Shown here piece after piece: positions 1-14,667 of a stretch of 15,391 nucleotides of DNA (position 1 is its first letter; each line of letters starts with the position of its first letter). The stretch spans positions 38,894-54,284 of the forward strand of contig JAHLWZ010000810.1 in NCBI GenBank assembly GCA_020536535.1, written 5' to 3'. Below the pieces are notes generated by a model. It had not been told where the DNA came from. It was given only the letters and a program-made list of their open reading frames with translations, and made no database searches. The position numbers and the translations under genes were made by a program. The stretch is from Pelomyxa schiedti. Taxonomy: Eukaryota; Protista; Evosea.

Positions 1-25
1 GGGGGGGGGGGGGGGGGGCGGGGGG
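1..25. repeat. G18-C-G6 homopolymer at the window edge. Probable dG-tailing or poly-G sequencing artefact, not a telomere.
   Basis: Seen directly: 18 G, 1 C, 6 G at positions 1-25, followed by unique sequence. Known eukaryotic telomere repeats are not pure G. Confidence 0.5.
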
Positions 26-857
26 AAATGAGAGAGCCCATTAACACGTTGTTGGTTGGTGGGAATAATAGGGGAGTCTTGCCTGTTGCATTATGGCGCT
101 GTTGTGGCTGAACAGCGGACGACAGCATGTCACCAACGCGCCTCGTGCTTTGTGTCGGTTTTTATGTTTAATTACGAGGGTAAAATCTGTAATTCTGCCT
201 CGGTGTATTTTCGCCCTGGAGAAAGTTGTTAGAAAACTCGAAGGGAACAGGAAGGCGATTTAACTTCTATTTTCCGCTATCGGCCATTTTTAACCGTGCA
301 AGATTCAGCCCAGGATTGGTGAGTGCTCTTCCACCTTAAATGACTCTATTCCACACAGCACTGCACGGCAATGCCCAGCCAGGCCGATTCCGTCTGTTCC
401 CTCATATTTCCTCTCAGTCCATAGCAAAAATAAATAACCTCATCTTTAGGAACCACCTTGCTTCTCCCATGTTTGGGACGTAATGGGTGCGAGGGTTGTT
501 TCTTTCCCCTCGTCGTGGCTGCTGCGCCAAGCCACCGCACTGGTTCTACTACTCAAGACTCGCGCACCCAGTGGGTTGTTTTCTGGTGAACACGAAGTAA
601 CCCTTCTGGTTCAGGTGGTCACGACTGTAGTGTGCCTTCGCCGCTGTCAGGGCGGTACTTTCATAGCCATGGCTTGTGCTGCTTGTACACCGGGCAAGCC
701 TTGATGTTTTCCACCAGAGTTCAACAAAATCCTCTCACGTAAAAGGTTGAATAGAAGTCACGAAGAAATAAAGCCACTCAAAAGAATTTTGTTTGGAACT
801 ATTTTTTTTTCTTAGAAAACCAACACAAAACAAAACACTCAATCAAAACTTGCTTCT

Positions 858-1699
858 CTAGTGTCCAGAGGCGGGGGCGGAGACCAAGCCAGAGGCGGTG
901 TTGAACAAGTTAATTGGGCTGTTGCCATCGGTGATCATCAGTGACTTGAGTCCAAGGCCGTTGAGGAGCTTGGCCTGCATTTCTGGTCCGGCCTGTGCAA
1001 TAGCCCTGATTGTCTCTGGTCCAATGGCGGAAACTACCTCTCCGAACTTGGTGGTTTCGATTTCAGCAAGGTCGCGGGTGCGCTTCACCTCCAGCTGTGT
1101 GAGCTTCTCCTTGTGTGCAAGCTCCATTCCTTGTCGCTTCTTGAGCTCGTCAAGGGCTGCCTTTGCGGTAATGGTGGCAGAGTTTGCGGAGAGGGTTGCC
1201 TGCTTGACTGCGGCCTCGCCCTCGATGGTTGATGCAGCGGCAAGAGCTCGAGCCTCAGCTGTTGCCTGACCGGTGCTCTCCACGGTTGCGCTTTGTGCCT
1301 GGAGCTCAAGGAGTGACTTGCGGGCCCTCTCGGCCTCGGCCTCGTCGGCGAGCTTTTGTCTCTCAAGGCGGCCGCGGGCCTCCTGGTCAAGGCGCTCAGC
1401 CTCCTGGCGGGCTGTGGCCTCCTGGGACTTGGTGGTAATCTCAATAGCGAGTTGGACTGACTTCTGAAGGGAGTCGCGGGTGCGTTGGTCGACGGGCTCA
1501 ACAGACTGAATATCAATGTTGGTGACAACAAGGTTGTTGCTGCTGAAGACAAGTCGGTCATTGATTTCGCCGGTCTGTGTGTTGCGACCAAAAACGGACT
1601 CCTGAATGATATCTACGGAGTGCTTGTGGAAGGCATCGAAAGATGTAGAGGCAACAACTCCTCTGACGCGGGCACTGAGGGCCTTGCAAAGATCACCAA
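858..1699 (-). CDS. MVP: Major vault protein, exon 4 of 4. C-terminal shoulder, cap-helix and cap-ring region, ending at the TAG stop at 858-860.
   Basis: The minus-strand translation '...VGDLCKALSARVRGVVAS...[47 protein letters not shown]...' aligns with vertebrate MVP ([47 protein letters not shown]). The acceptor CGTAG lies at 1700-1701 and the exon enters in phase 1. Confidence 0.9.
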
Positions 1700-1745
1700 C
1701 TACGAGGTGTCAAAATAAAGAAAACCACACAAGAGAAAAACAAAC

Positions 1746-3089
1746 CGAAGTCAGGTGTGCTGAAGATGCGGCCAGCAGCCTCCTGATCGCTTTGGTCAAC
1801 CTCGAAATGCCAGTTATAGCTGAGCTTGAGAGCCAAACGGGCGTGATCAGCGGTTTCAACGGTGATCTGATCAGTCATGAAGTCGGGTCCAAGGAACAGG
1901 GAGATGGCGTGGATTTGGTTGGATTGTTTAGGAACACCACCGCTCATGTTAAGAGTTGTGAAGTGCTCATCTGGCTGGAGGAGGACAAGATCGGGTCCGA
2001 ATACAACACGTGATTTCTTCTTCTCATAGTCATACACTTGTACAGCAGCGCCGTGGGGTACACGGTAGCTGACAACGCGGGTTGGGTCGCGAGCCTTGGG
2101 AGATCCTGTCTTAATGTCGTTCTTGTCGCGAGAAGCATCAACAAGGAGCAACTTGTCGACTTCAGTGGGGAGAACCTTAGACCAGAGCTCCTCATTAGGG
2201 GCAAGCATGTATGAAGATCCAATGTGGGCGCGGATCTTGCCTGTGGTGATATCGCGTACGTAGATACCCTCGTTCTCGTCAAGAGGAATTGCTCTCCTCT
2301 TCTCGACTACCTCAACCTCTACTGGTGGGATGAAGTCTCGTGGGCCATAGAGCATCCACCTGTCTCCAGGGAGCTTCTTCTCTTCTGGAAGGGCAGAGCG
2401 GGCACGGAGAAGAAGGGCCTCCTCCTGAGCAAGCACGTACACATCCTGGATTCCATTCTCAAGCCTCTCACCTGGGTAGAGGAAGAAAGAAGCCTCGCCT
2501 CGGCGGAGTTCGCGGGCGCCGAACCTGGGCCTGCCGTCATGGCCAATTGGGTCGACAACAACGCAGAACTGTCGGTTGTTCAGGGTGGTGATTTTCACGA
2601 TTCCCTTGACTTGCTCATAAACGTCGGTGATGTAGGTCTCAGTATCTTGCATGGTGACAAGCCACTCCTCTCCAGCCTTGCGGACCTTGTTGAAGACATC
2701 AGAGAACGTGTTGTTGGCAACAAGGTGAAGGGCGGTAGTGGGAGTCAGAACAACGGCGCTGACAGTTCCAACGATTTCCTCATTGACATCAGGTAAGTAA
2801 GCACCGCTCTTGCGGACCAACCACTGCTCACCAGCGCATCTGTGCTGGGTGGTGCTATCAACGCAATCGAGTCTGGCGCGAAGCTTGAGGGCCTCATTCT
2901 CCTTGATGATTGTGCTGTTAACCTTCTCCACAACTGATTCCTCAACACGGGGAGTGTATGTGGAGGGTCCCTTGAACAGCCACTCGTCGCCAGAGGTTCG
3001 TTTGTGTCCTTCCTTGTCTTCGAAATCCCTCACGGCACGGATACGGAGTGCCTGATTGGCTTGAACGACAACCAAGGGTGTTGGCTTCT
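1746..3089 (-). CDS. MVP: Major vault protein, exon 3 of 4 (MVP repeat domains).
   Basis: A continuous 448-codon open frame, '...LVVVQANQALRIRAVRDFEDKEGHKRTSGDEWLFKGP...VVSYRVPHGAAVQVYDY...ITVETADHARLALKLSYNWHFEV...', is collinear with human MVP. The donor GTTTGT is at 1745-1744 (minus) and the acceptor TTTTAG at 3095-3090 (minus). Confidence 0.9.
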
Positions 3090-3145
3090 CTAAAACGCAG
3101 GATTAGTACTCGGAATTGGAATTAAAGGGAAAGAAGTGGGCATAC

Positions 3146-3322
3146 CCTTAAGAGACTCTCCAGGGAAGAGTGGGAATGGGTCCTGAGCGAAACGGATTTC
3201 CTCATCTCCATGTCTAATCTTGGGCATGCCAAACTGATCAAGGAGTGTGTTCCCCTTCTTGTCCTTCTCCACTGGGTTGGAGATCTTGCAGTAGTTGCGG
3301 GGAGGAACAGTAATCATAGCCT
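3146..3322 (-). CDS. MVP: Major vault protein, exon 2 of 4.
   Basis: The translation 'EAMITVPPRNYCKISNPVEKDKKGNTLLDQFGMPKIRHGDEEIRFAQDPFPLFPGESLK' corresponds to human 'MRMVTVPPRHYC...LAQDPFPLYPGEVLE'. It is flanked by the acceptor TTTCAG (3328-3323, minus) and the donor GTATGC (3145-3140, minus). The 56-nt downstream intron contains a TACTAAT branch-like motif. Confidence 0.85.
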
Positions 3323-3464
3323 CTGAAATTTAAATTAATAACCATTAAACCACAAGTATTTAAAAAGACACACACGACAAAAAACATCGCATTATTGAGT
3401 GTGTGTTGTAGTGGAAAAAACCCAATAACACGAAGGGAGAAAAACAAACAAACAAAAAGCGAAC

Positions 3465-3600
3465 CTGGGCCGAGGATGATGTTTTCATGGTCGCGGCGAG
3501 TGAAAGTTCGAGGACCGACAACAACAGTGGTAACGTTGGTGTTGTTATCAAAGACGTGGATGTAGTGGTTGGGCTTGATTCGAATGACTGACTCCGGCAT
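3465..3600 (-). CDS. MVP: Major vault protein, exon 1 of 4, with the start codon at 3600-3598.
   Basis: 'MPESVIRIKPNHYIHVFDNNTNVTTVVVGPRTFTRRDHENIILGP' matches the MVP N-terminus ([41 protein letters not shown]). The Kozak-like context is caaccATGc. The donor is GTTCGC at 3464. Intron 1 is 142 nt and A/C-rich. The exon phases make the four-exon total 2499 nt, which is 833 codons including the stop. Confidence 0.85.
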
Positions 3601-4043
3601 GGTTGAAACAAAACTTGACTTTTGGTTTGTTTTGGTTTTTCTTGTGTTTTTTTTTAAATTATGTTTTGGTTTTTTATTCGGCACAAAATAAAAAGTAGCT
3701 ACGCGGATCTAACGGCCAAAAAAAAAACCGAACGGAGGAAAAAAAAACAAACCAAGAATTGAAAGAGAAAAAAATAGGAATTCCTGAAAGCGAAAGGACT
3801 GGGCGTTGAATCAGTTGCTTTTTAATCCGGGGTTCTATCTTTCTATCCTCCGCGCCATTCTCCTCTCTGAGCATGGAAGCATCGCCTATTCCCAAGCCTC
3901 AATAGATACACAACAAGGTCTTTGTGAGCAGCTTCGAGACCCACACCACCAGAAAACACAAAATCCTTTCGCCGTGCCTGATTGTGTGCAATGCACTGCA
4001 TCTTTCACGAACGTTCTTCGTTGCCGTCCACCAACCGGCGAAC
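3601..4043. promoter_or_regulatory. Divergent intergenic and 5'-UTR region shared by MVP (minus) and the ROCO gene (plus). It is A/T-rich with long A tracts.
   Basis: The two genes sit head-to-head with their ATGs 443 bp apart (MVP at 3600, ROCO at 4044). The region contains tracts such as caaaaaaaaaaaccgaacggaggaaaaaaaaac. A 10-codon uORF (ATG 3873 to TAG 3905) is in frame with the ROCO ORF. No TATA element is obvious. Confidence 0.4.
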
Positions 4044-6051
4044 ATGCAACCTGCCAACGACGACCCCCCTTCTCCCTCGCCCCAGCCCACGGAATCCGCA
4101 GACACCCGCCCCTCCGCCTCTGCCTCTCCCCCTCCTTCACACCCATCCCACCACCACCGGGACCAACACCGGCACAGCTGCAGCCCAGAGAGGCAGCACG
4201 AAGGGTGCCCGGCAGACAGCCCCCCGCGGTGCGGCCTGCCCCCCCCGGGGGCCATCCGCGCCCGCGCCTCCACCTCCGCGTCGGTGCTGGACAAGCGGAA
4301 GACCCTGCAGCGCTCCAACGGCGTCCTCAACCTCCGCGGCATGGGCTGCGACGACACCTGCCCGCTGCCCCCGTCCTCGATCCGCGCCTCCTGCTCCCTG
4401 CTGCCGCTGCCCTCGTCCTCGTGCCCGCCCTCGTGCGCCTCCCACGAGGGGATGCCCTGCACCTGCCGCTGCTCCCTCACGACGACTACTACTACTGCTA
4501 CTACTACCTCGGCTTCCTCGTCGTCGCCGAAGGGGGTGGTGCTGCGGAGCCTGGGTAAAAACACTGCTGGGGCACCTACCAGCAAGTCGATGGACTCGGT
4601 GGTTTTGAACCCCACTGGGGGCGTCAAGTGCACTGTGAGGGGCACGGACAACGATCGCAACAACTCGCTCTCTCAGTCTCCAAATGCCACCAGGAAAAAA
4701 TCGACTTCCAAAAGACCTTCCCCATCTCCACCACCAAAATCCACTCCTCTGAAAACAATGGTAACTGTGAGCCAAATGGCCCAGGCTACTACTACGGGGA
4801 TCCCGCAACCTACTGAACAGATAGTACCAACTGGCGATTCAGGTGATTCAGCTTCTAGTAACACCCCTGCGAACAGCAGAACCAAAACGTCTCCAAGGAT
4901 TGCACTTTTTCCCACCATCAAAATACACTGCCTATGGAAACATGGCAGCCATACTACCGTGTCACAACTGTCAAGATACTCCCGTTGCATCGCGGAGGCG
5001 CTAATTCCGGAACTGCAGAGTGATGAACTTGACCGAGCAAGGGCATTAAAGAAGTTGCAGGAACAAAGCCCCAAGATTATCAAAGTGTTTGCCAACGTCT
5101 TCGAAGCTGCTTCTTCCGAGTCACATTCGTCGTTTGACACCTTTGGAGATTTTCACCCAATGGCATCCCTGGCACAGGCTTCCAACATTAGTGACCTAGT
5201 TTCTCCTGGTCTAAATTATACCACCCCCTCAGAGTCTCCCATGTCAGGCGACTCAACCCCAGAGTCAAGAGGTGCCAGCCTTCAAAGTGGAATGACTGAT
5301 GAAACGGCACTTATATTTATGCTTTCTGTGAGTGATAGCTCCATTCCTTATGTTTGGGTACATGCTGCCCATGCAGCTGTTGATGCTCTATGGTGCATTT
5401 GCTTAAGTCCGCGGTTCGCAAAACTTGTGCATCAAAATGTTGTCGTATTTGCATGCCGGCTATTCTTCCACTCTTTGGCATCGTCTTTGACCTGGTCTTC
5501 GCTTCCTCAGCTGCCTCCGTCATGTCTTTTGGAGTCGACTGCCTCAGCGGCGTTGTTGATGTCTTCCTCATCAAGCTCCCTATTATCACCGCACGTACCC
5601 TCTCTATCGCCCACTCCAGACACCAAAGCCACAGGATCTGGTGTGGCTCCACCAGTGGAGGAACCGGAAGCTCCACTAAATCCTCTTCGCAATGCTTCAG
5701 TTCGAAAAGATACCTGTGGTATTCTTTGGCGCTTGACAGAGATTCTAACAAATCGCATTGATGACTCCGGACTTCCTGAGGGGGGTGGACTTCAACAGCG
5801 CATGCAAATAAATAATGTTGCCCTACAGTCAGCAGTATCACGCCTTCTGAAGGCATTCCCTGAACACCAGCGCATCCAATATCACAGTTGTAAGTTGATG
5901 ACAGTTATGATAAAGCGGTATTCATTTTGCTGGGAATTCGTCAAACTTGATGGGCTCAAAGTATTGAGTAGTGCTGCCCGACTCTTAATGAGAACTGCTG
6001 AGGCAATTCCCGATACTCTTCAGGAGCTAAGAGATCATATTATTAACGTTG
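4044..6051 (+). CDS. ROCO-family kinase (LRR-Roc-COR-kinase), exon 1. An N-terminal Pro/Ser/Cys/Thr-rich low-complexity segment (GC-rich, 4047-4560) is followed by an ARM/HEAT-like helical region. The start is the first in-frame ATG at 4044 (upstream 3924 is GTG).
   Basis: The open frame is 2.0 kb long. Its C-terminal part, 'SIPYVWVHAAHAAVDALWCICLSPRFAKLVHQNVVVFACRLF...LKVLSSAARLLMRTAEAIPDTLQELRDHIINV', looks like armadillo-type repeats as found N-terminal in LRRK-type proteins. The codons are C-ending, like the MVP sense strand. The donor GTACTT is at 6052 and the exon ends in phase 1. Confidence 0.7.
4047..4560 (+). other. GC/CpG-rich compositional island (about 70% GC) inside ROCO exon 1. 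It has no stops in any of the six frames and includes a poly-Thr ACT/ACG run at 4483-4512.
   Basis: There is an abrupt composition shift relative to the flanking sequence, which is about 45% GC. In the ROCO frame the codons are predominantly NCC/NTC, consistent with the sense-strand bias seen in MVP. Confidence 0.6.
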
Positions 6052-6106
6052 GTACTTGCCCTCTGCGGACTGGATGCTCTTATTCTTCGTGTGTATATTC
6101 CTCCAG

Positions 6107-6601
6107 CAATGCATACTTATCTTTTTAGTGGTTCAGGGGAGACCACATGCGTTTCTGTTCTATATAATGCCTTGTTAGCAGAACAGTACCAAGAGCTTGT
6201 GTTAACTGAAAATATCACTTCACAGGCCTTGGCTCAATTTTTGCCTTCCCTGTACCCTTTCTCCCGAGTCGTTATGAGTAATTTGGGGCTGGACTCTGTG
6301 CCTATCGAGATAGGCAATCTTTCCAATCTCGTTCAAGTTGATCTGAGTCACAATCAACTTGGTTATGTCCCTTGTTCTTTTGCTAAGCTGGAGAAACTGG
6401 AACTTCTCAACGTTGAATACAATAAGATTGACCGGTTATTCCCAGGGTTTGGGCTCCACCCAACAATGAAACTGATGTGCCAGCATAATCCTCTCAAGGG
6501 AATACCCTTCATGGCCAGAAACTCTCCAAAAAACTTGAAGACTTATTTGAAAGACTTAAATGAAGACATGCACTACTGGAATCGCGTTCGGATACTCGTA
6601 G
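6107..6601 (+). CDS. ROCO kinase, exon 2: leucine-rich repeats plus the start of the Roc GTPase domain.
   Basis: 'MSNLGLDSVPIEIGNLSNLVQVDLSHNQLGYVPCSFAKLEKLELLNVEYNKIDRL' has the LxxLxLxxN LRR consensus. The exon ends '...WNRVRILV|' immediately before the P-loop. The acceptor is tcctccag at 6106 and the donor GTATGA at 6602. Confidence 0.8.
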
Positions 6602-6649
6602 GTATGATAATAGACTCAAATATATAAAAAGAGTAAATCTTTGTTCCAG

Positions 6650-6822
6650 TTGGAGAAGAATCAGCTGGCAAAACTTCTCTCATTCGCCGTTTGCAGTCAC
6701 GCAAATTCAAGTCCAACTCTCTGGCTACAAATGGAATTGAAGTAGCATCGAAGCAAGTAAGTATTGGTGAATCTACACTGGGACCTTCAGTTAAATTTAT
6801 GTGCTGGGACTTTGGTGGACAG
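6650..6822 (+). CDS. ROCO kinase, exon 3: Roc GTPase G1 (P-loop) to G3.
   Basis: 'VGEESAGKTSLIRRLQSRKF...KFMCWDFGGQ' carries the GxxxxGK[ST] P-loop and the DxxGQ switch II motif, as in the LRRK2 Roc domain (LNVWDFAGREEF). The acceptor is ttgttccag at 6649 and the donor GTAGTT at 6823. Confidence 0.8.
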
Positions 6823-6864
6823 GTAGTTCGCCTCTTACCCATAAATTATTCTAAAAGTCCTAAG

Positions 6865-6975
6865 GTGTGCTTCTATCCAACTCACCAGTTCTTCCTATCA
6901 CCCAAAGCCCTTTACCTAGTGACCTTTAGTCTGGAAAAGTTTCAGCTCTCCACTATTGATTACTGGCTTCAGCAG
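6865..6975 (+). CDS. ROCO kinase, exon 4 (Roc domain). The 5' boundary is uncertain.
   Basis: 'VCFYPTHQFFLSPKALYLVTFSLEKFQLSTIDYWLQQ' aligns with LRRK2 'EEFYSTHPHFMTQRALYLAVYDLSK'. The preceding 42-nt intron (6823-6864) is in frame and has no stop, so retention cannot be excluded. The donor GTGTGA is at 6976. Confidence 0.5.
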
Positions 6976-7016
6976 GTGTGATTAGAAGTTTTGTTGTCTG
7001 TTCTGAGATGCACAAG

Positions 7017-7163
7017 ATTGAAGCAATTTCCTCCAAAGATCAAACAGAGCCTCCAGTAATTCTTTGCGGGACGCACTCTGACGTTTTTCCTTCCCTAGAG
7101 GAAGCCACTATACAAATTCAAAGTATGCTTTCCAGATACAAGCAAAGGTTTCACAACATTAAG
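7017..7163 (+). CDS. ROCO kinase, exon 5 (Roc G4 region).
   Basis: 'IEAISSKDQTEPPVILCGTHSDV...' corresponds to LRRK2 'ARASSSPVILVGTHLDV'. The acceptor at 7016 gives a 41-nt intron, although a 32-nt alternative exists. The donor GTATAT is at 7164. Confidence 0.65.
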
Positions 7164-7207
7164 GTATATTGTGACTTTATTGTCTTCCAATATTCATCTG
7201 AGTCCAG

Positions 7208-7291
7208 GGAGCAATTGCACTGAGCAATAGCACTGGCATTGGCATCAATTCACTTAAGACGCTTCTCCTAAAAGTCGCTAAGGATACGAAG
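7208..7291 (+). CDS. ROCO kinase, exon 6 (end of Roc).
   Basis: 'GAIALSNSTGIGINSLKTLLLKVAKDTK' is in phase 0 at both ends. The flanking introns are 44 nt (7164-7207) and 43 nt (7292-7334). Confidence 0.65.
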
Positions 7292-7334
7292 GTAGTCCTT
7301 TGTCGAATACATTCTTTATTCATAAGTGGAATAG

Positions 7335-7510
7335 CTCACGAATATCGAAATTCCCACATCTTACTACTGCCTATCAAAACGGGTGATCTCGTTGCAAAAG
7401 GCATCCCCTGGAATGCGGGTAATGCCCTGGATGAGCTTTTATCAGCTCGCAAACCAGGTGAACTTATTTTGCCCTGTAAGTGTCCAACTTGCAGCGGAAT
7501 TTCTGTGCAG
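7335..7510 (+). CDS. ROCO kinase, exon 7 (COR-A).
   Basis: 'LTNIEIPTSYYCLSKRVISLQKA...QVNLFCPVSVQLAAEFLCS' aligns with LRRK2 COR 'GQLIPDCYVELEKIILSERKN...ENELPHAVHFLNES'. Internal GT sites (GTGAAC, GTAAGT) are read through. The donor GTAGAA at 7511 is required because an in-frame TAG follows. Confidence 0.6.
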
Positions 7511-7552
7511 GTAGAACTAGCTTCCTTTTATGCTTTCCTTTCCTAATCCCAG

Positions 7553-7619
7553 CAGTATGGGTTATTTGTTACACTACAACCACGGTTTACTTGCGGATGT
7601 GGTGTTTATGGACATGCAG
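7553..7619 (+). CDS. ROCO kinase, exon 8 (COR). The acceptor is either 7552 or 7555.
   Basis: 'SMGYLLHYNHGLLADVVFMDMQ' aligns with LRRK2 'SGVLLHFQDPALQLSDLYFVEPK'. The donor GTATTC is at 7620. Confidence 0.6.
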
Positions 7620-7661
7620 GTATTCGAACTCCTTCGTAATTTTTTCTGACATCTCCTATAG

Positions 7662-7751
7662 TGGGTTGCTAACGTTATGGCGACACTGATTTCGTTTACC
7701 CACAATTTCGGTAAAAGAGATGGGCTTCTTAGACCAGAGGACCTTAAACAG
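7662..7751 (+). CDS. ROCO kinase, exon 9 (COR).
   Basis: 'WVANVMATLISFTHNFGKRDGLLRPEDLKQ' aligns with LRRK2 'WLCKIMAQILT...GIISRRDVEKFL'. The preceding 42-nt intron has a CTGAC branch-like motif. Confidence 0.65.
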
Positions 7752-7797
7752 GTTCCCTATTGTTATCAATGCTCTTTAATTAAATCATGTGCCTAAG

Positions 7798-8033
7798 ATT
7801 CTGAAAGGAAGCACCACAAATTCACTGGAATTCATAGAGCTTCTTGTAAAATTCAACATTGCTCATGTTATTTCTAGCAATGACTCACTTCTCATCCCGT
7901 GCCTCCTGTCTGATGCCTGCCCCAATATGGAGTGGCCTCCACAATCTCCAAATGATAGCCTTACTTCACCTATGGTGATAAGTGCTTGTTCTAGGTACTA
8001 CAGATTATATGAATTTCGGTTTCTGCCTCTTGG
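7798..8033 (+). CDS. ROCO kinase, exon 10 (COR).
   Basis: 'ILKGSTTNSLEFIELLVKFNIAHVISSNDSLLIPCLLSD...RYYRLYEFRFLPLG' aligns with LRRK2 'YFKLLEKFQIALPIGEEYLLVPSSLSD...IIIRLYEMPYFPMG'. The donor GTGTGC is at 8034. Confidence 0.75.
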
Positions 8034-8083
8034 GTGTGCCAGCTGATGTTATAGAGGTTTCCTTACATTTTTCCATGAAATAG

Positions 8084-8301
8084 CTTTATGGGTAGATTGA
8101 TTACACAAATACTCCAGAGCCCAAATATATCCATGCTGAATTGCTGGAAGGATGGGCTTATTATTACAGATAAACTCCATCCCCAGTTTTGTCTGTTTAA
8201 GTATGACCCTGAACTGTGCACTGTGTCTCTTGATGTTGCTCTGTTTGGCTCTCTTGAGGACCCCAAGGCATCTTTGCTGCGAATATGTATTGAAATGATA
8301 G
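8084..8301 (+). CDS. ROCO kinase, exon 11 (COR).
   Basis: 'FMGRLITQILQSPNISMLNCWKDGLIITDKLHPQFCLFKYDPELCTVSLDVALFGS...' aligns with LRRK2 'FWSRLINRLLEISPYMLSGRE...'. The preceding intron is 50 nt. Confidence 0.75.
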
Positions 8302-8342
8302 GTGGGGATGATGTAAATCCTTGTACCCTCACAATAAAATAG

Positions 8343-8506
8343 AAGCCCTAGCGGAATGTTCATACCCAAGATTATTTTATTGTCTTCAACGAAGAGTTCC
8401 CTGCAACCACTGTAAAGCTCTCAGCACTGCTTCAGTTTTCAAGTATGAAGATATTGTATCACTGTATGTTTCTGGGCAAACAGACGTGAAATGTAATGGT
8501 GACTCT
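8343..8506 (+). CDS. ROCO kinase, exon 12 (COR-B). The 3' boundary is ambiguous.
   Basis: 'EALAECSYPRLFYCLQRRVPCNHCKAL...' resembles LRRK2 'DSLMEEWFPGLLEI'. A phase-0 donor is needed to reach the acceptor at 8553. Candidates are 8455, 8467, 8485, 8506, 8512 and 8515. I chose 8506 because it gives the modal 47-nt intron. Confidence 0.35.
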
Positions 8507-8553
8507 GTTACGGTTGTACCTATCAAATGCTACTGTTTACTGACACACCTAAG

Positions 8554-8649
8554 TTGGAAGACTTAGCACCGGACATAACATTCACTGATATACCAGTCCT
8601 AAAGGATGTACGAATTGTTAGAAAACTGGGTGAAGGAGGCTTTGGGGCT
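8554..8649 (+). CDS. ROCO kinase, exon 13: the COR-kinase junction and the kinase glycine-rich loop.
   Basis: 'LEDLAPDITFTDIPVLKDVRIVRKLGEGGFGA' carries the GxGxFG motif. The donor GTACTT at 8650 is the same hexamer as the intron 1 donor. Confidence 0.75.
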
Positions 8650-8693
8650 GTACTTCCATCTTTCCTCCAATTCAATCTTAGAATCAGTATTAG

Positions 8694-8738
8694 GTTTACC
8701 AAGGAATGCTAAATACGAGCAGCTGGGTGGCAGTAAAA
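8694..8738 (+). CDS. ROCO kinase, exon 14 (kinase subdomains I-II; VAVK catalytic lysine).
   Basis: 'VYQGMLNTSSWVAVK'. Donor options at 8739, 8742 and 8745 all preserve the frame, and 8739 (GTAGTT) gives a 42-nt intron. Confidence 0.6.
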
Positions 8739-8780
8739 GTAGTTGTGCTATGTTTCGACACAAATAACAAATGACTACAG

Positions 8781-8918
8781 GAGTTACTCGGTTCTGGAGA
8801 GGACACAGTACAGAAATTTACGCAGTTCCAGCGGGAAACTGCAATAATGAACTTCTTACATCATCCAAACCTCGTCTCACTTCTTGGAATAACTCTGACG
8901 CCTCCTCGTATGGTTTTA
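8781..8918 (+). CDS. ROCO kinase, exon 15 (kinase subdomains III-V).
   Basis: 'ELLGSGEDTVQKFTQFQRETAIMNFLHHPNLVSLLGITLTPPRMVL'. From memory, Dictyostelium Roco4 reads '[48 protein letters not shown]'. The donor GTATGT is at 8919. Confidence 0.75.
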
Positions 8919-8961
8919 GTATGTACCGCCAGAATAGCCGGAAAGTACTAAGTTCCCACAG

Positions 8962-9124
8962 GAATTCATACCTGGAGGAGACCTTTCACATTTCATGCAC
9001 CCACAAGCAGAGAAGACCATCTCACAAGAAGAATTCGACTGGGTATACAGATTGAACATCGCTATTGACATAGCTCGGGGGATGGAATACCTTCAAAAAA
9101 TAAAACCTCCCGTGATACATCGAG
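8962..9124 (+). CDS. ROCO kinase, exon 16 (kinase subdomains V-VIa).
   Basis: 'EFIPGGDLSHFMH...IAIDIARGMEYLQKIKPPVIHR'. The donor GTAAAT is at 9125. Confidence 0.8.
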
Positions 9125-9172
9125 GTAAATATCTATTACATTCCACTCTTTGCACAGTTCTCAGTGCACTAG

Positions 9173-9237
9173 ATTTACGACCTGCGAATATTTTCCTCAC
9201 TGGAACCACTGAAGGACCAATTTATGCGAAAGTTGCG
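9173..9237 (+). CDS. ROCO kinase, exon 17 (catalytic loop HRDLRPANIFL).
   Basis: The acceptor at 9172 restores 'HR|DLRPANIFLTGTTEGPIYAKVA'. The alternative acceptor at 9157 would destroy the HRD motif. The donor GTATGT is at 9238. Confidence 0.75.
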
Positions 9238-9291
9238 GTATGTGTTTTTGATAGCATTTGGTTCTTTTTTACCAATTCAATTCCACCTTAG

Positions 9292-9298
9292 GATTTTG
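9292..9298 (+). CDS. ROCO kinase, exon 18: a 7-nt micro-exon GATTTTG encoding the DFG motif.
   Basis: This is the only splice solution that keeps both DFG and the downstream 'LSRRVSEMNDSLPNWEWLAPE' in frame. Read-through from either side hits a stop. The acceptor ttccaccttag is at 9291 and the donor GTACCT at 9299. The flanking introns are 54 and 47 nt. Confidence 0.5.
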
Positions 9299-9345
9299 GT
9301 ACCTCGTTGTCTATTCCCGCCTCCCATAACTTCTTACTTTCCAAG

Positions 9346-9456
9346 GTCTCAGCAGAAGGGTATCCGAGATGAATGACTCTCTTCCAAATTGGGAATGGCT
9401 GGCTCCTGAAGTTTATTCAACCTCCTCGGTCACTAAGAAATATGACTGCAGCACAG
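9346..9456 (+). CDS. ROCO kinase, exon 19 (activation segment and APE motif).
   Basis: '(G)LSRRVSEMNDSLPNWEWLAPEVYSTSSVTKKYDCST'. The donor GTTAAT is at 9457. Confidence 0.7.
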
Positions 9457-9503
9457 GTTAATAAGTGGTTAACGGCAAATCAAATTGAACGAACTTCCTT
9501 CAG

Positions 9504-9652
9504 ATGTATATAGCTTTGGGCTTATATTGTATGAAATGGAGGCCTTGCGGATTCCCTATTCGGAATTTCGTGAAGACCCAAGATACAACACAACAGCAGG
9601 CACAAATAAAGCTGGGAAGCCTATTCTAAGATTCCAACTAATTAAATTCAAA
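9504..9652 (+). CDS. ROCO kinase, exon 20 (kinase subdomains IX-X).
   Basis: 'DVYSFGLILYEMEALRIPYSEFREDPRYNTTAGTNKAGKPILRFQLIKFK'. The donor GTACAC is at 9653 and the following intron is 47 nt. Confidence 0.7.
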
Positions 9653-9699
9653 GTACACAAACGCAATTTTTCCCCTTTTAAAATAATACACCCAATTAG

Positions 9700-9882
9700 A
9701 ACGCAATTGAGGAAGGACTGCGGCCCACTCTCCTAGAATCCCCTGAAATACCCCTTGGTTACAATGAATTGATGAAGCAATGCTGGGATAATGACCCCAC
9801 CAATAGACCCACCTTCTCCCAGATTTACGAGGACCTTACAAGGATATATGCAAATAACGACTGCAGTAGCCAACAGCACTAA
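9700..9882 (+). CDS. ROCO kinase, exon 21 (kinase subdomain XI, C-terminus, TAA stop at 9880-9882).
   Basis: 'NAIEEGLRPTLLESPEIPLGYNELMKQCWDNDPTNRPTFSQIYEDLTRIYANNDCSSQQH*'. From memory, Roco4 reads '[39 protein letters not shown]'. An AATAAA-like signal (aataataaa) sits about 30 nt downstream. The summed exon phases give a 4926-nt CDS of about 1641 aa. Confidence 0.75.
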   Translation, partial: NAIEEGLRPTLLESPEIPLGYNELMKQCWDNDPTNRPTFSQIYEDLTRIYANNDCSSQQH

Positions 9883-10233: not shown

Positions 10234-10860
10234 TCATTGAAAGGCAGCAACCAGTAGTATCATGCTTCTCTTCACTTGATCCTGAGAGTTATTCAATATT
10301 GTTAGTGCAGTTCGGGAACTTTCTATACCATTGTGTTGAGAGACAGACTGGGCGTCGGTGGATAAGGTGAAGGCAACTTGTAGTTTCGGTTTCAGCTTTT
10401 GCTTCACCTTTGCTTTCGTACGCGAGTTTGGCGACACAACGGGGTCCTCTGCATTGCCCACCTCCATCGCTTCGTCGGTCGACCGAGCAGTCGTTGCTGG
10501 CGCCGATTCCGCCCATCTGGCCCCTGTGGATGCCGTTTGGCCCCCCAATGGCTGCGGATCGCTCGTCTCCTCATCCTGTCCGTTGTCGCAGGGCAGCGCA
10601 CTCGCAGAAGAAGGTGCGCTGGAACCAGCCGCACGCGCCACAGCGTGCGGGCTTTGGATTCCGCCATCAGCGCTTGAGTTCTGCCCCACGCGCGCGCGCT
10701 TCCGTGCCGTTTCTCGCGCGAAATCCGACGCGTCGCCATGGGAAGAGGGCGACGACGCGGGAGAAAACGCAGGCGAGCGGGCGTGGGCTGCGGACCTGGA
10801 GTGCTGTTGCTGGCGGCGGCGTGGGAGAGCCGTGTGGAGGCTGAGCTGCACGATTTGTTC
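10234..10860 (-). other. Unresolved gene-like segment. The open frame encodes a low-complexity Ser/Ala/Arg-rich peptide ending at the TGA stop at 10234. Both strand and frame are uncertain.
   Basis: The ORF stays open across the GC-rich block 10400-10860, where every frame is open, and across the moderate-GC tail 10240-10400. A strong 3' splice-site motif ttccttgtgtattgcag sits at 10873-10857 (minus). No upstream exon with an in-frame ATG was found and there is no homology to anchor the frame. The plus-strand frame 10358..10882 shows C-ending codon bias similar to genuine genes here. Confidence 0.25.
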
Positions 10861-10956
10861 TGCAATACACAAGGAAATGTGAGAACGTGAAGGTTGGCAA
10901 GTGACTTGTGTGTGAGTGTGTTTTGTTTTGGTGTCAGGGAGAGACAACACAAACAC

Positions 10957-11380: not shown

Positions 11381-11421
11381 GTGAGTGCATTCTGCCATAT
11401 CGTACTGTTCATTCTTAACAG

Positions 11422-11705
11422 TAACGATAGGCACGCCACTCAAACAAGAGCAAGAGCCAATAGTAGTGCCAGAGAAACCCAAAGAGAAACCAGCTGCAAA
11501 AAAGTCAGGGATTTCCGCATTGCTATGCAGTGTCTTCTCTGTTCTTTTCAATCCTCTGATTCCGAGGTATGGTGCATTCATGAATATGCTGGCTCCAAAT
11601 CAACCTCATTCTAGACCTCTTCTCGAGGAACCCCATCCAAGTCATGTTGGGAAGAAGACTTTGGTCTTGGATTTAGATGACACCCTTGTCCACAGTTCAT
11701 TTCAA
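11422..11705 (+). CDS. SCP/NIF-type phosphatase, exon 2: a hydrophobic segment plus the DxDxT catalytic motif.
   Basis: '...KKSGISALLCSVFSVLFNPLIP...GKKTLVLDLDDTLVHSSFQ' carries the DLDxTLVHSS signature of the FCP1/SCP family. The donor GTGAGT is at 11706. Confidence 0.8.
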
Positions 11706-11757
11706 GTGAGTCACTCACAATTTATTGTGTTGTGTAAACCTGACAACTGATGCACAG

Positions 11758-11907
11758 CCGGTTGAACACTGTGACATGACGTTCCCAATTGAACTCGAAG
11801 GGAAACCCTTCACTGTTTATTTGAACAAAAGGCCAGGCTTGGATGAGTTCTTGCGTTACGCGACTCAGAATTTTGAAGTAGTAGTTTTCACTGCTAGTCT
11901 CAAACGA
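11758..11907 (+). CDS. SCP/NIF-type phosphatase, exon 3.
   Basis: 'PVEHCDMTFPIELEGKPFTVYLNKRPGLDEFLRYATQNFEVVVFTASLKR' aligns with human SCP1 '[50 protein letters not shown]'. The introns are 52 and 49 nt and both have GTGAGT donors. Confidence 0.85.
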
Positions 11908-11956
11908 GTGAGTTTCTGCTTTGTAATTTCACACATTTACTTACTTGATTTTCCAG

Positions 11957-12460
11957 TACGCGGATCCAGTTATAAACGCGATTGATCCGGACCACACAAT
12001 TCCCCACAGACTCTACAGAGGGTCATGCACAATGATACAGGGGCACTACATAAAGGACTTGAGCAGATTGGGCAGAGAGCTCCGGAACTGCATCATTGTT
12101 GACAATTCCCCAGTGTCTTACGCCCTTCATGCCCAGCACGCCATTCCAATCTCCACCTATGTAAATAGTCCCCATGATAGGTGCTTGGATTCGCTCCGCT
12201 TGATCCTTGATCAAGTCAACTCACACCCCGATGTGTGCGCGACCCTCAAGTGGGTTTTAAAGAGCCCTCTTGCCGCCGATCACATGGCGCAAGCAGAGCT
12301 CTCAGCGCGAGCCACTCTCGCGCCCCCCAAAGCTACAACAATCACCATCGCATCAACAACGACGTCATCTTCAAGAGCCACTGCGCCGCCAAACGCGCCA
12401 ACAATGACTACTGAATGCACATCAAAAACGCTAGTGCTCACAGCCAGTGGTCAGAGTTGA
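11957..12460 (+). CDS. SCP/NIF-type phosphatase, exon 4 (TGA stop at 12458-12460).
   Basis: '[69 protein letters not shown]' aligns with SCP1 '[69 protein letters not shown]'. It has a Thr/Ser/Ala-rich C-terminal tail. An AATAAA lies at about 12692. The total CDS is 969 nt, or 322 aa. Confidence 0.85.
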   Translation, partial: [167 protein letters not shown]

Positions 12461-12817: not shown

Positions 12818-13212
12818 ATGGACGCGACACAAGCCAAAACTACTGAAGTCGTAACGGCACCTATTGCTACGCAACAACCTTCGGCCGCAGAAAGTTGTTC
12901 CACAAAGGTACTCGAAGTTAGCCCTCCAAGTGAAACAGACAAACAAAATTGTACCAATGGAGAAGCAGTAGTGCCAGAAAAAAAAGAACTAGAACCAAAA
13001 AATAAAGACGCAACCGAAGCGCCTCAAACACAGCAAGCTGAACAAAACACACAAATACCAACACAACAGCAACAAGAAGCAGCCGTGCAACCAGGTGATG
13101 GGAAGCCAGTCCCACCAAACGATAACCGTACCTTGTACTTTGGAGGCCTCGCGTGGCAAACATCGGAGTCTGACTTGGCTCATCACATTGAAGATACATG
13201 CGGTTGTCAAGT
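12818..13212 (+). CDS. Two-RRM RNA-binding protein, exon 1: a Q/E/T-rich N-terminus and the first half of RRM1 (RNP-2 'LYFGGL').
   Basis: The ATG at 12818 has the context acaagaATGG and follows an A-rich leader. The exon ends in phase 2 at a GTGAGT donor (13213). A 44-nt intron follows. Confidence 0.75.
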
Positions 13213-13256
13213 GTGAGTCACTCCTTGCTTCATTATTTTCAATTAATTTTGTCTAG

Positions 13257-14055
13257 GTTGGCAGTTGACATAAAAACCAAAGGAAGACAATCTTTAGGTT
13301 TTGGGTTTGTGGAAGTAGATACCCCTGAATCTGCATCAGTAGTAGTCAGTAAGCTGCACAATCAATCATTCCAGGGCCGTGTGATATCGGTGGATTTTGC
13401 TCGCCCTCGTAACTTCGTTCCGTCATCTTCTAGCTCGACATCGTCTTCAACAAACTCGACGTCAACATCCTCTCCTGTGCTATCCAGACCACCAATGCGA
13501 ACGGGCTTTCGCACCCAATGGGGGAATTCATACGGATTTCCAATGCCCAGAATGTGGCCAAGATTCCCGCGGGTGAGATATCCTTTTGTGCAAGCACCTA
13601 TTATGCCGAGATATACCCCACAACCAGCATTGATAGCTCAACCAAAGATGTCACTACCACCCCCTCAGCCACAGCTTCCCCTTCCCCCACCACCTCTAAT
13701 TCAAACCCACACTGTTTCCCAACCACTCATTTCTTCTCAGCCATCTGCTCCCCAGTCCCTTCTACCACAACAAGATGGAAGATATTCTATGCCACAGCGC
13801 CGTGGTCAATCTGTATCAGCCCAGCCTTTGCTCCCTACAACCCCGAGCCAACCTGCATTCCAGACCCCGGTATACAATGCCGCACCTCCTGCAATGCAAT
13901 CTACCACCCAATCTCAACAAACTAGACAAGGTGCTCCAATTCAACAGAACTTCCAGCGAGAAAGGTTTATTTTATTTGCTGCCCATCCCCTTTATCTCAA
14001 TAGTGATAGACAATTCTTTACTCAGCGGAGTTACAACGGACAAAGATCACCCAAG
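13257..14055 (+). CDS. RRM protein, exon 2: the RNP-1 motif of RRM1 plus a long Ser/Pro/Gln-rich linker.
   Basis: '(V)LAVDIKTKGRQSLGFGFVEVDTPESASVVVSKLHNQSFQGRVISVDFARPRN' has the RNP-1 octamer LGFGFVEV. The open frame runs to the GTAACA donor at 14056. A 39-nt in-frame GT..AG segment near 13960 cannot be ruled in or out as an intron. Confidence 0.65.
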
Positions 14056-14108
14056 GTAACAAATGCAATTTTGGTTACGGAGCCTAACTGCGAATTTAAA
14101 TAAAATAG

Positions 14109-14524
14109 TCTAGAAATATGTTGGCAATCAACTACCCTGCACCAGCAGCACAAATGATCAATCAGAACCCCCGAACCAACACTGGCATTTCCTACCAACA
14201 ACAGTACAACCAAGCACCGCAGATGTTGCAGTCACCACAGTGGCCACAGGTAGGCCAACCGCAACAAATGATGCAACCACAAATGATGCAGCCGCAAATG
14301 ATGCAACCACAACAAATGATGCAGGCACCTCAGATGATGCAACCACAAATGATGCAACCCCAGATGATGCAGCCTCAACAAATGATGCCGCAGTCCCAGA
14401 TGATGCAACCACAACAAATGATGCAACCACAGCAAATGATGCAGCCACAACAAATGATGCAGCAACCCCAGATGATGCAACCGCAGCAAATGATGCAGCC
14501 ACAGATGAATTATCCTCCAAGAAG
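14109..14524 (+). CDS. RRM protein, exon 3: a Gln/Pro/Met-rich tandem-repeat domain.
   Basis: The 53-nt intron 14056-14108 shifts the frame into 'SRNMLAINYPAPAAQMINQN...QPQQMMQPQMMQPQMMQPQQMM...QPQMNYPPR'. This is the only frame that continues in phase into RRM2. The donor GTTCTT is at 14525. Confidence 0.6.
14256..14507 (+). repeat. Imperfect 15/18-nt coding tandem repeat of about 15 units: CAACC(A/G)CA(A/G)(CAA)ATGATG.
   Basis: Seen directly. Units such as caaccacaaatgatg, cagccgcaaatgatg, caaccacaacaaatgatg and caaccccagatgatg vary mostly at synonymous positions, giving (Q)PQ(Q)MM peptide repeats. It produces spurious long ORFs in five other frames. Confidence 0.85.
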
Positions 14525-14567
14525 GTTCTTCCTCTTTGGAGGTTGCCAAATTACTGACTCTCTTCAG

Positions 14568-14667
14568 GGTTGAATCCCGCACTACCCTCTATATCGGAAA
14601 CCTTCCTGCTGTTGTTACCGATGCCACACTTAGGGAGATTTTTTCAGAGATGCCCGTGAAGGTTAAG
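14568..14667 (+). CDS. RRM protein, exon 4: the first half of RRM2 (RNP-2 'LYIGNL').
   Basis: '(R)VESRTTLYIGNLPAVVTDATLREIFSEMPVKVK'. The donor GTATGA is at 14668 and a 48-nt intron follows. Confidence 0.7.

Follow-up and report, generated by a model that had tools for sequence, protein, structure and literature searches.

What does the forward (+) strand encode between positions 3924 and 9882 of a 15,391-nucleotide (nt) stretch of the Pelomyxa schiedti genome, and where does the encoded protein begin? The stretch is taken from contig JAHLWZ010000810.1 (positions 38,894 to 54,284) and is referred to below as the window; all coordinates are window positions. An earlier note, made from the letters of the window, had proposed a large ROCO gene on this strand, broken by about 20 short introns. 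LRRK2, a human Parkinson's disease gene, belongs to the same family. ROCO proteins are defined by a tandem of Roc and COR domains, and those of group 2 carry a kinase in addition (PMC6337361). The + strand carries one spliced gene here, with an open frame from 3924 and a TAA stop codon at 9880-9882. Very probably, this anaerobic amoeba (Archamoebae, Amoebozoa) has a functional nuclear gene here, coding for an LRRK-type ROCO protein. The predicted layout comprises a long N-terminus (part disordered, part helical), about four to five leucine-rich repeats (LRRs), Roc, COR-A and COR-B, and a TKL-type Ser/Thr kinase, with which the protein would end.

Gene model and domain architecture

From 3924 to 6128 the + strand forms a single long open frame; downstream, the open pieces are short and the frame shifts every 50-250 nt. 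These pieces were joined by hand via GT-AG introns, and the junctions were checked against the Roc, COR and kinase motifs. The resulting long model runs from an ATG at 4044 to the TAA at 9880-9882 and encodes 1641 amino acids; at the first pass its 20 introns, all GT-AG, measured 41-55 nt. Residue numbers count from ATG 4044 throughout (residue 336 = window 5049). Two automatic models, built by dynamic programming with either minimum-intron or codon-usage scoring, were discarded, because they read in-frame introns without a stop codon as coding sequence and contained frameshifted stretches. The final model has 21 exons and 20 introns of 40-54 nt, all of them GT-AG, which bears out the earlier estimate of intron number. 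When translated from a second in-frame ATG at 4758, the spliced product has 1409 amino acids and is 100% identical, with zero differences, to GenBank entry KAH3757026.1, a P. schiedti protein named 'leucine-rich repeat-containing protein' (gene at 4758..9882, +). The length of 1641 residues proposed in the earlier note is thus reproduced from ATG 4044, but the public protein, which starts at ATG 4758, is shorter. That the locus is one gene and not several is upheld by the public model, which is single, and by the paralogue KAH3758928.1, which is collinear over residues 336-1630.

All introns lie on the + strand. Intron 1 (6089..6128) measures 40 nt; introns 2-10 are found at 6602-6649, 6823-6864, 6976-7016, 7164-7207, 7292-7334, 7511-7555, 7620-7661, 7752-7797 and 8034-8083, and introns 11-20 at 8302-8342, 8513-8553, 8650-8693, 8739-8780, 8919-8961, 9125-9172, 9238-9291, 9299-9345, 9457-9503 and 9653-9699. 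At three places a different splicing had been considered (an intron at 6052-6106, an acceptor at 7552 and a donor at 8507), and each time paralogue alignments favour the GenBank introns, namely 6089-6128, 7511-7555 and 8513-8553. At the first site, GTCPLRTGCSYSS pairs with LTSGLHQACSYKC of the paralogue; at the second, a single Ser, rather than two, precedes MGY; and at the third, SV-T pairs with SI-P of the paralogue before LEDLAPD. Short GT-AG introns are consistent with an intron-rich genome, in which 7.43 introns per gene and 98.4% GT-AG boundaries have been reported (PMC8887013).

Two introns deserve separate mention. Intron 7 ends in a NAGNAG acceptor (cccagcag, 7550-7555), allowing for two products, one of them with an additional Ser. 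The intron at 6823-6864 (42 nt), which directly follows the WDFGGQ motif, is in frame and stop-free; its retention would add 14 residues to switch II without truncating the protein. The distribution of introns is very uneven: the long coding sequence has none over its first 2045 nt, and all 20 fall in the other 2.9 kb, at a density of about one per 145 nt. Retained introns usually show a 5' bias, and the pattern in this gene is the opposite. A position-weight scan of exon 1 gave no convincing hidden intron. The best candidate (5641-5700) was rejected because its GC content is 55%, as against 37% in real introns (mean intron GC of 0.37 in the first-pass set, which differs from the final one at three boundaries).

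A micro-exon of 7 nt (9292..9298), GATTTTG, encodes Asp and Phe of the kinase DFG motif, and its final G opens the Gly codon; its flanking introns (9238-9291, 54 nt; 9299-9345, 47 nt) are both canonical. The path through this micro-exon is the only splicing that holds DFGLSRR in frame. KAH3757026.1 carries AKVADFGLSRRV at the site, and DFGLS is present in the public protein as well as in all paralogues aligned. The only alternative without any micro-exon is an intron of 131 nt, which would delete DFGLSRRVSE; a further path, with a 15-nt exon, would retain DFG within a non-conserved motif, DFGTSF. For genomes with introns of about 45 nt, the micro-exon offers a neat test case for gene predictors.

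The domain order read from the translated exons is that of a group 2 ROCO protein: Roc is followed by COR-A and COR-B in one polypeptide, the kinase lies C-terminal to COR, and LRRs lie N-terminal to Roc, the last with a marginal but consistent signal. Pfam detects Roc at residues 831-951 (80.7 bits, cut-off 27; E 1.3e-22), COR-A at residues 1029-1154 (57.9 bits, cut-off 35.3; E 1.4e-15), COR-B at residues 1183-1321 (41.2 bits, cut-off 27; E 1.8e-10) and a kinase of the PK_Tyr_Ser-Thr family at residues 1343-1627 (162.9 bits; E 1.1e-47). Roc and COR are therefore found between LRRs and kinase, as the earlier note had proposed. In the window, the Roc GTPase occupies 6589..7082, with three introns inside, COR-A 7401-7908 and COR-B 7993-8500, both also recognised by alignment to LRRK2 COR, and the kinase 8611..9837, with eight introns inside, the last supported in addition by its match to Dictyostelium Roco4 and by its motifs. 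The LRRs (6196..6528; about four to five by eye) are the least distinct element. LRR_8 at residues 731-777 reaches 23.8 bits in the whole protein, under the gathering score of 27; with the LRR exon in isolation, LRR_8 rises to 27.8 bits (cut-off 27), and LRR_1 reaches 23.7 (cut-off 20.6). Their position before Roc is nonetheless sustained by a consistent alignment to the terminal LRRs of LRRK2 and by 55% identity to the paralogue.

All catalytic motifs are intact. The nucleotide-binding motifs of Roc comprise the P-loop GEESAGKTS (GxxxxGKT; 6652-6678), switch II WDFGGQ (DxxGQ; 6805-6822) and the G4 motif GTHSD in its THxD form (7068-7082). The kinase has a glycine loop (GEGGFGAVY), VAVK, HRDLRPAN, DFG within DFGLS, and APE (WLAPE). 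A further motif quoted in the earlier note, PPRMVLEFIPGGDL, is also confirmed in the translated exons, as are GEESAGKTS, WDFGGQ and GTHSD.

The claim that the protein lacks a WD40 tail stands. The TAA is placed 11 residues past the kinase alignment, and the sequence behind it is AT-rich; no donor/acceptor pair was found that would skip the stop with the frame still open. A Pfam scan of selected downstream open reading frames (ORFs) gave no WD40 match, and the first Pfam-recognisable gene downstream on the + strand encodes a NIF phosphatase, from about 11385. An LRRK2-like C-terminal WD40 propeller is thus not part of this protein. Paralogue KAH3758928.1 has no WD40 domain either and ends 10 residues after its kinase, while KAH3743364.1 and a transcript of Mastigella eilhardi end about 70 residues after theirs, equally without a propeller.

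A different picture emerges for the region ahead of the LRRs (4758..6168), which the earlier note had taken for armadillo-like helices. Searches with residues 239-669 gave no Pfam family even at E<=10; residues 239-690 together with the paralogue, used as a two-sequence profile, gave no match among PDB sequences; and BLASTP of residues 239-690 gave no significant match, whether to a paralogue or to the ARM region of an LRRK2-like protein from sea urchin (E>0.6 for the latter). A word-indexed homologue search with the N-terminal 431 residues was likewise without match, a weak negative since it also missed the protein itself. Single-sequence AlphaFold prediction of residues 319-669 gave a confidence (pLDDT) of 37, too low for the model to be of use, with helices only and long unstructured Ser-rich linkers between them. 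The armadillo assignment therefore lacks support from Pfam, PDB profile or BLASTP; residues 239-690 may still form an alpha-solenoid. The region is weakly conserved with the paralogue KAH3758928.1, which is collinear from residue 336 (window 5049) at 20-27% identity; it is on this ground that the region is regarded as real and fast-evolving.

Such divergence, together with the many paralogues in the genome, could be taken to mean that the gene itself is decaying, as a pseudogene or as an inactive enzyme in a large family of expanded copies. This is highly improbable: the frame is intact over 21 exons with canonical splice sites throughout, every GTPase and kinase motif is preserved, and identity to the paralogue peaks in the catalytic domains (64% in the kinase), the pattern of purifying selection. 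Some points do weigh against the reading as a functional LRRK-type ROCO gene, or at least against its details. The LRR signal is weak, with a Pfam score at the cut-off. The first 690 residues or so have no detectable homologue beyond one paralogue, and translation may start at either of two candidate codons, 4044 and 4758. The exon junctions rest on sequence plus the public model, which was made with Augustus, PASA and EVM (PMC8887013), and the function is the one predicted from homology.

The GC-rich 5' segment and the start of the protein

The first in-frame ATG, at 4044, coincides with the onset of a strongly 3-periodic stretch and lies 454 nt from the start codon of a divergent gene for major vault protein (MVP). 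Between it and the start codon of KAH3757026.1, the frame continues without a stop (4044..4757, +), giving a possible N-terminal extension of 238 codons outside the public protein; for a stop-free stretch of this kind, dinucleotide shuffles give P = 0.016. The first 169 codons of the extension are rich in Pro, Ser, Thr and Cys, with 72% GC and a GC content at third codon positions (GC3) of 0.86. Over 4044-4550, GC by codon position amounts to 0.59/0.70/0.86 (permutation p<5e-5). Within this island, 90 codons in a row end in G or C (4215-4484), and two-fold degenerate codons end solely in C or G (Asp 8:0, His 8:0, Cys 11:0, Lys 3:0, Asn 3:0). Tandem repeats account for only about 70 nt of it. 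No other 150-nt stretch of the 15 kb attains a GC3 of 0.85 in any phase.

These properties form the core of the case that the protein starts at ATG 4044, that KAH3757026.1 is N-terminally truncated and that the 238-residue extension is translated as a disordered tail, a reading which we favour with moderate confidence. It is further supported by the paralogue, which likewise has a Ser/Thr/Pro-rich N-terminus of about 180 residues, and by the consequence of the alternative start: translation from 4758 would leave about 1.1 kb upstream with several upstream ATGs. The public model may then miss 238 N-terminal codons. The earlier note had also described a Pro/Ser/Cys/Thr-rich extension, and its open, strongly 3-periodic stretch is indeed present, but the public gene model does not contain it. 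This absence counts against a start at 4044, and so does the composition: GC3 is near 0.95 in the GC-rich segment, compared with 0.42 elsewhere in exon 1, and none of the other genes in the window resembles it in this respect. Moreover, all three forward frames are open across 4044-4550, so that openness there carries little information. On the minus strand, an ORF of 254 codons (3899-4663) overlaps the island and uses the same wobble positions (GC 0.61/0.55/0.80); periodicity alone therefore leaves the strand undecided, and a likelihood based on amino-acid composition did not separate the sense and antisense readings either.

The antisense ORF is the starting point for an explanation in which the island at 4044-4550 lies outside the ROCO protein, either as part of a separate minus-strand coding sequence (3899-4663) or as foreign or chimeric DNA that arose during whole-genome amplification of single cells and assembly. 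The assembly was indeed built on multiple displacement amplification of single cells taken from a polyxenic culture (PMC8887013), and a composition unique within the window would suit such an origin. We nevertheless regard it as unlikely. The antisense ORF does not reach an ATG until about 320 nt into the frame, which leaves much of the periodic stretch unexplained, and an in-frame, stop-free junction to the downstream gene is unexpected for a chimera. Searches with the N-terminal region on both strands found no relatives, either in 185,579 bacterial and archaeal species genomes (GTDB) or in a metagenome collection, and the + frame translation has no Pfam match; this lack of homologues tells against such an origin, and it equally deprives the start at 4044 of a homologue for its extension. 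The antisense ORF is probably a by-product of G- and C-ending codons on the other strand.

The GC3-saturated 5' segment, with its abrupt change of codon usage within one exon, is the sole item at this locus that is left unexplained. A tentative and rather doubtful proposal is that 4044-4550 is a genuine coding segment absent from the public annotation, the GC3 saturation of which stems from a recently acquired fragment fused to the ROCO kinase, or from local GC-biased gene conversion beside a bidirectional promoter. If so, the gene, intron-free over its first 2 kb and rich in introns thereafter, would be a composite: an old ROCO core to which a young N-terminal part was added.

Paralogues in P. 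schiedti and neighbouring genes

An exhaustive profile search returned 150 ROCO kinases, 40 of which were compared. Among these 40, the closest relative is P. schiedti KAH3758928.1 (1485 amino acids, also annotated as 'leucine-rich repeat-containing protein'), with 45% identity over residues 336-1630, rising to 51% in Roc-COR. The two proteins share the same Pfam architecture, a domain-free N-terminus and an insert of about 20 residues in the C-lobe of the kinase; they differ in their N-terminal 335 residues or so, which cannot be aligned. Next in order are KAH3743364.1 (35%) and KAH3765766.1 (31%). Other ROCO matches come from Mastigella, Pyxidicula, Acytostelium and environmental contigs.

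The P. schiedti genome encodes at least 12 Roc-COR-kinase proteins. Besides KAH3757026.1 and KAH3758928.1, these are KAH3743364, KAH3765766, KAH3760136, KAH3744947, KAH3756512, KAH3760740, KAH3758484, KAH3766933, KAH3732372 and KAH3744221 (collection identifiers P0001, which is KAH3757026.1, P0002, P0018, P0093-P0097, P0099, P0106, P0122 and P0124). KAH3762641.1 is an LRR-Roc-COR protein of the same species without a kinase. Annotations of the P. schiedti ROCO proteins are heterogeneous and include 'leucinerich repeat kinase', 'FBox-LRR protein' and 'Rho GTPase'. Amoebozoa are a lineage known for ROCO expansions (PMC6337361; PMC4104024), and Dictyostelium has 11 Roco proteins (PMC4104024). The expansion in P. 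schiedti is not mentioned in the genome paper (PMC8887013, by term search) and was not described in the literature searched. Being already in GenBank, under a generic name, and one of at least 12 ROCO kinases in its genome, the gene is an ordinary member of a known family. The consequences for ROCO biology are small, as family, domain logic and amoebozoan expansion are well known and the sequence is public; KAH3757026.1 can, however, be re-annotated as a ROCO/LRRK-type kinase, and the P. schiedti proteins extend the amoebozoan ROCO expansion to anaerobic Archamoebae. The suggestion that this protein would make a good model for LRRK2 does not hold: Roco4 already fills this role, and the present gene is one of many paralogues in an organism available only in polyxenic culture (PMC8887013).

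The remainder of the window contains several other genes. The MVP gene occupies 1-3590 on the minus strand, with its ATG at about 3590, and its product contains Pfam Vault repeats and MVP_shoulder; it is divergent from the ROCO gene. The intervening 3600-3800 are AT-rich with poly-A/T runs and look like a promoter region shared by the two. Between the ROCO and phosphatase genes lies a minus-strand ORF of 240 codons (10234-10956; about 61% GC), which has no Pfam match and no 3-periodicity. The NIF/FCP1-like phosphatase gene (11385-12460, +; Pfam NIF, 95 bits) has several exons separated by short introns and is followed by an RRM-domain gene and then a Gln/Met/Pro-rich ORF (12818-14573, + for both). 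Within the latter, 14241-14522 consists of tandem 15- or 18-nt units that encode (P)QQMMQ, with 13 copies in register.

Proposed mode of action and comparison with known systems

By analogy with Roco4, CtRoco and LRRK2, the Roc domain would bind and hydrolyse GTP, and the COR domains would dimerise and relay the nucleotide state to the kinase, which would phosphorylate itself and its substrates. The LRRs and the N-terminal region would serve in targeting or autoinhibition. In LRRK2, the WD40 domain and the C-terminal helix contact the kinase; lacking a WD40 domain, the Pelomyxa protein could make no such contacts. The cellular role most likely lies in regulating the cytoskeleton or membrane traffic, as is suggested by the Roco proteins of Dictyostelium.

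Among solved structures, the two halves of the protein have different best matches. LRR-Roc-COR aligns best with residues 1246-1716 of LRRK2 (118 bits), in keeping with the earlier remark on the COR segments, followed by LRRK1 (86) and the bacterial CtRoco (74); to our knowledge, the Roc-COR of Roco4 itself is absent from the PDB. The kinase domain alone is matched best by Dictyostelium Roco4 (191 bits), ahead of Arabidopsis CTR1 (124 bits) and of TAK1, MLK and ABL (about 100). LRRK2 and LRRK1 are outside the best 60 solved-structure matches to the kinase and hence score below 94 bits, so the proposal of a kinase nearer to Roco4 than to LRRK1/2 is well founded. A second estimate points in the same direction: LRRK2 chains reach 162-170 bits against the whole protein and 100-118 against LRR-Roc-COR alone, which leaves about 50-60 bits for the LRRK2 kinase, as against 191 for Roco4. 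A 2527-residue entry of the length of human LRRK2 (P0151) was not used as a proxy for it; its kinase score against the Pelomyxa kinase is far too high for human LRRK2.

With human LRRK2 and LRRK1, the Pelomyxa protein shares the Roc-COR-kinase core with LRRs ahead of it, and its G4 motif has the THxD form found in LRRK2. It differs from both in that no ANK, WD40 or ARM domain is detected and that there are only about four to five LRRs; from LRRK2 it differs further in having DFG where LRRK2 has DYG, and its kinase is far more distant from that of LRRK2 than from Roco4.

In the kinase, the likeness to Roco4 (4F0F, 4F1O and others) is closer. Both proteins have the order LRR-Roc-COR-kinase, their kinases are 39% identical by BLASTP, and both contain PPRMV.EF.P.GDL, PP..HRDLR..NIF, AKVADFGLS and EEGLRP. 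The Pelomyxa kinase differs by an insert of about 20 residues ahead of the EEGLRP helix (DPRYNTTAGTNKAGKPILRF), which is common to the paralogues and is therefore coding sequence rather than a missed intron. Roco4 has a C-terminal WD40 domain, whereas the Pelomyxa protein has none. In a neighbour-joining tree of kinase domains, calculated without bootstrap for the 40 ROCO kinases compared, the Pelomyxa protein falls beside KAH3758928 and KAH3743364 of P. schiedti, which points to a lineage-specific clade, and Roco4 groups with Acytostelium P0101 and P0114. Since the protein thus falls with its own paralogues and Roco4 with dictyostelids, and since it lacks WD40, the gene is, as judged from these sequence comparisons, not an orthologue of Roco4; 'Roco4-like' here denotes the amoebozoan type of ROCO kinase.

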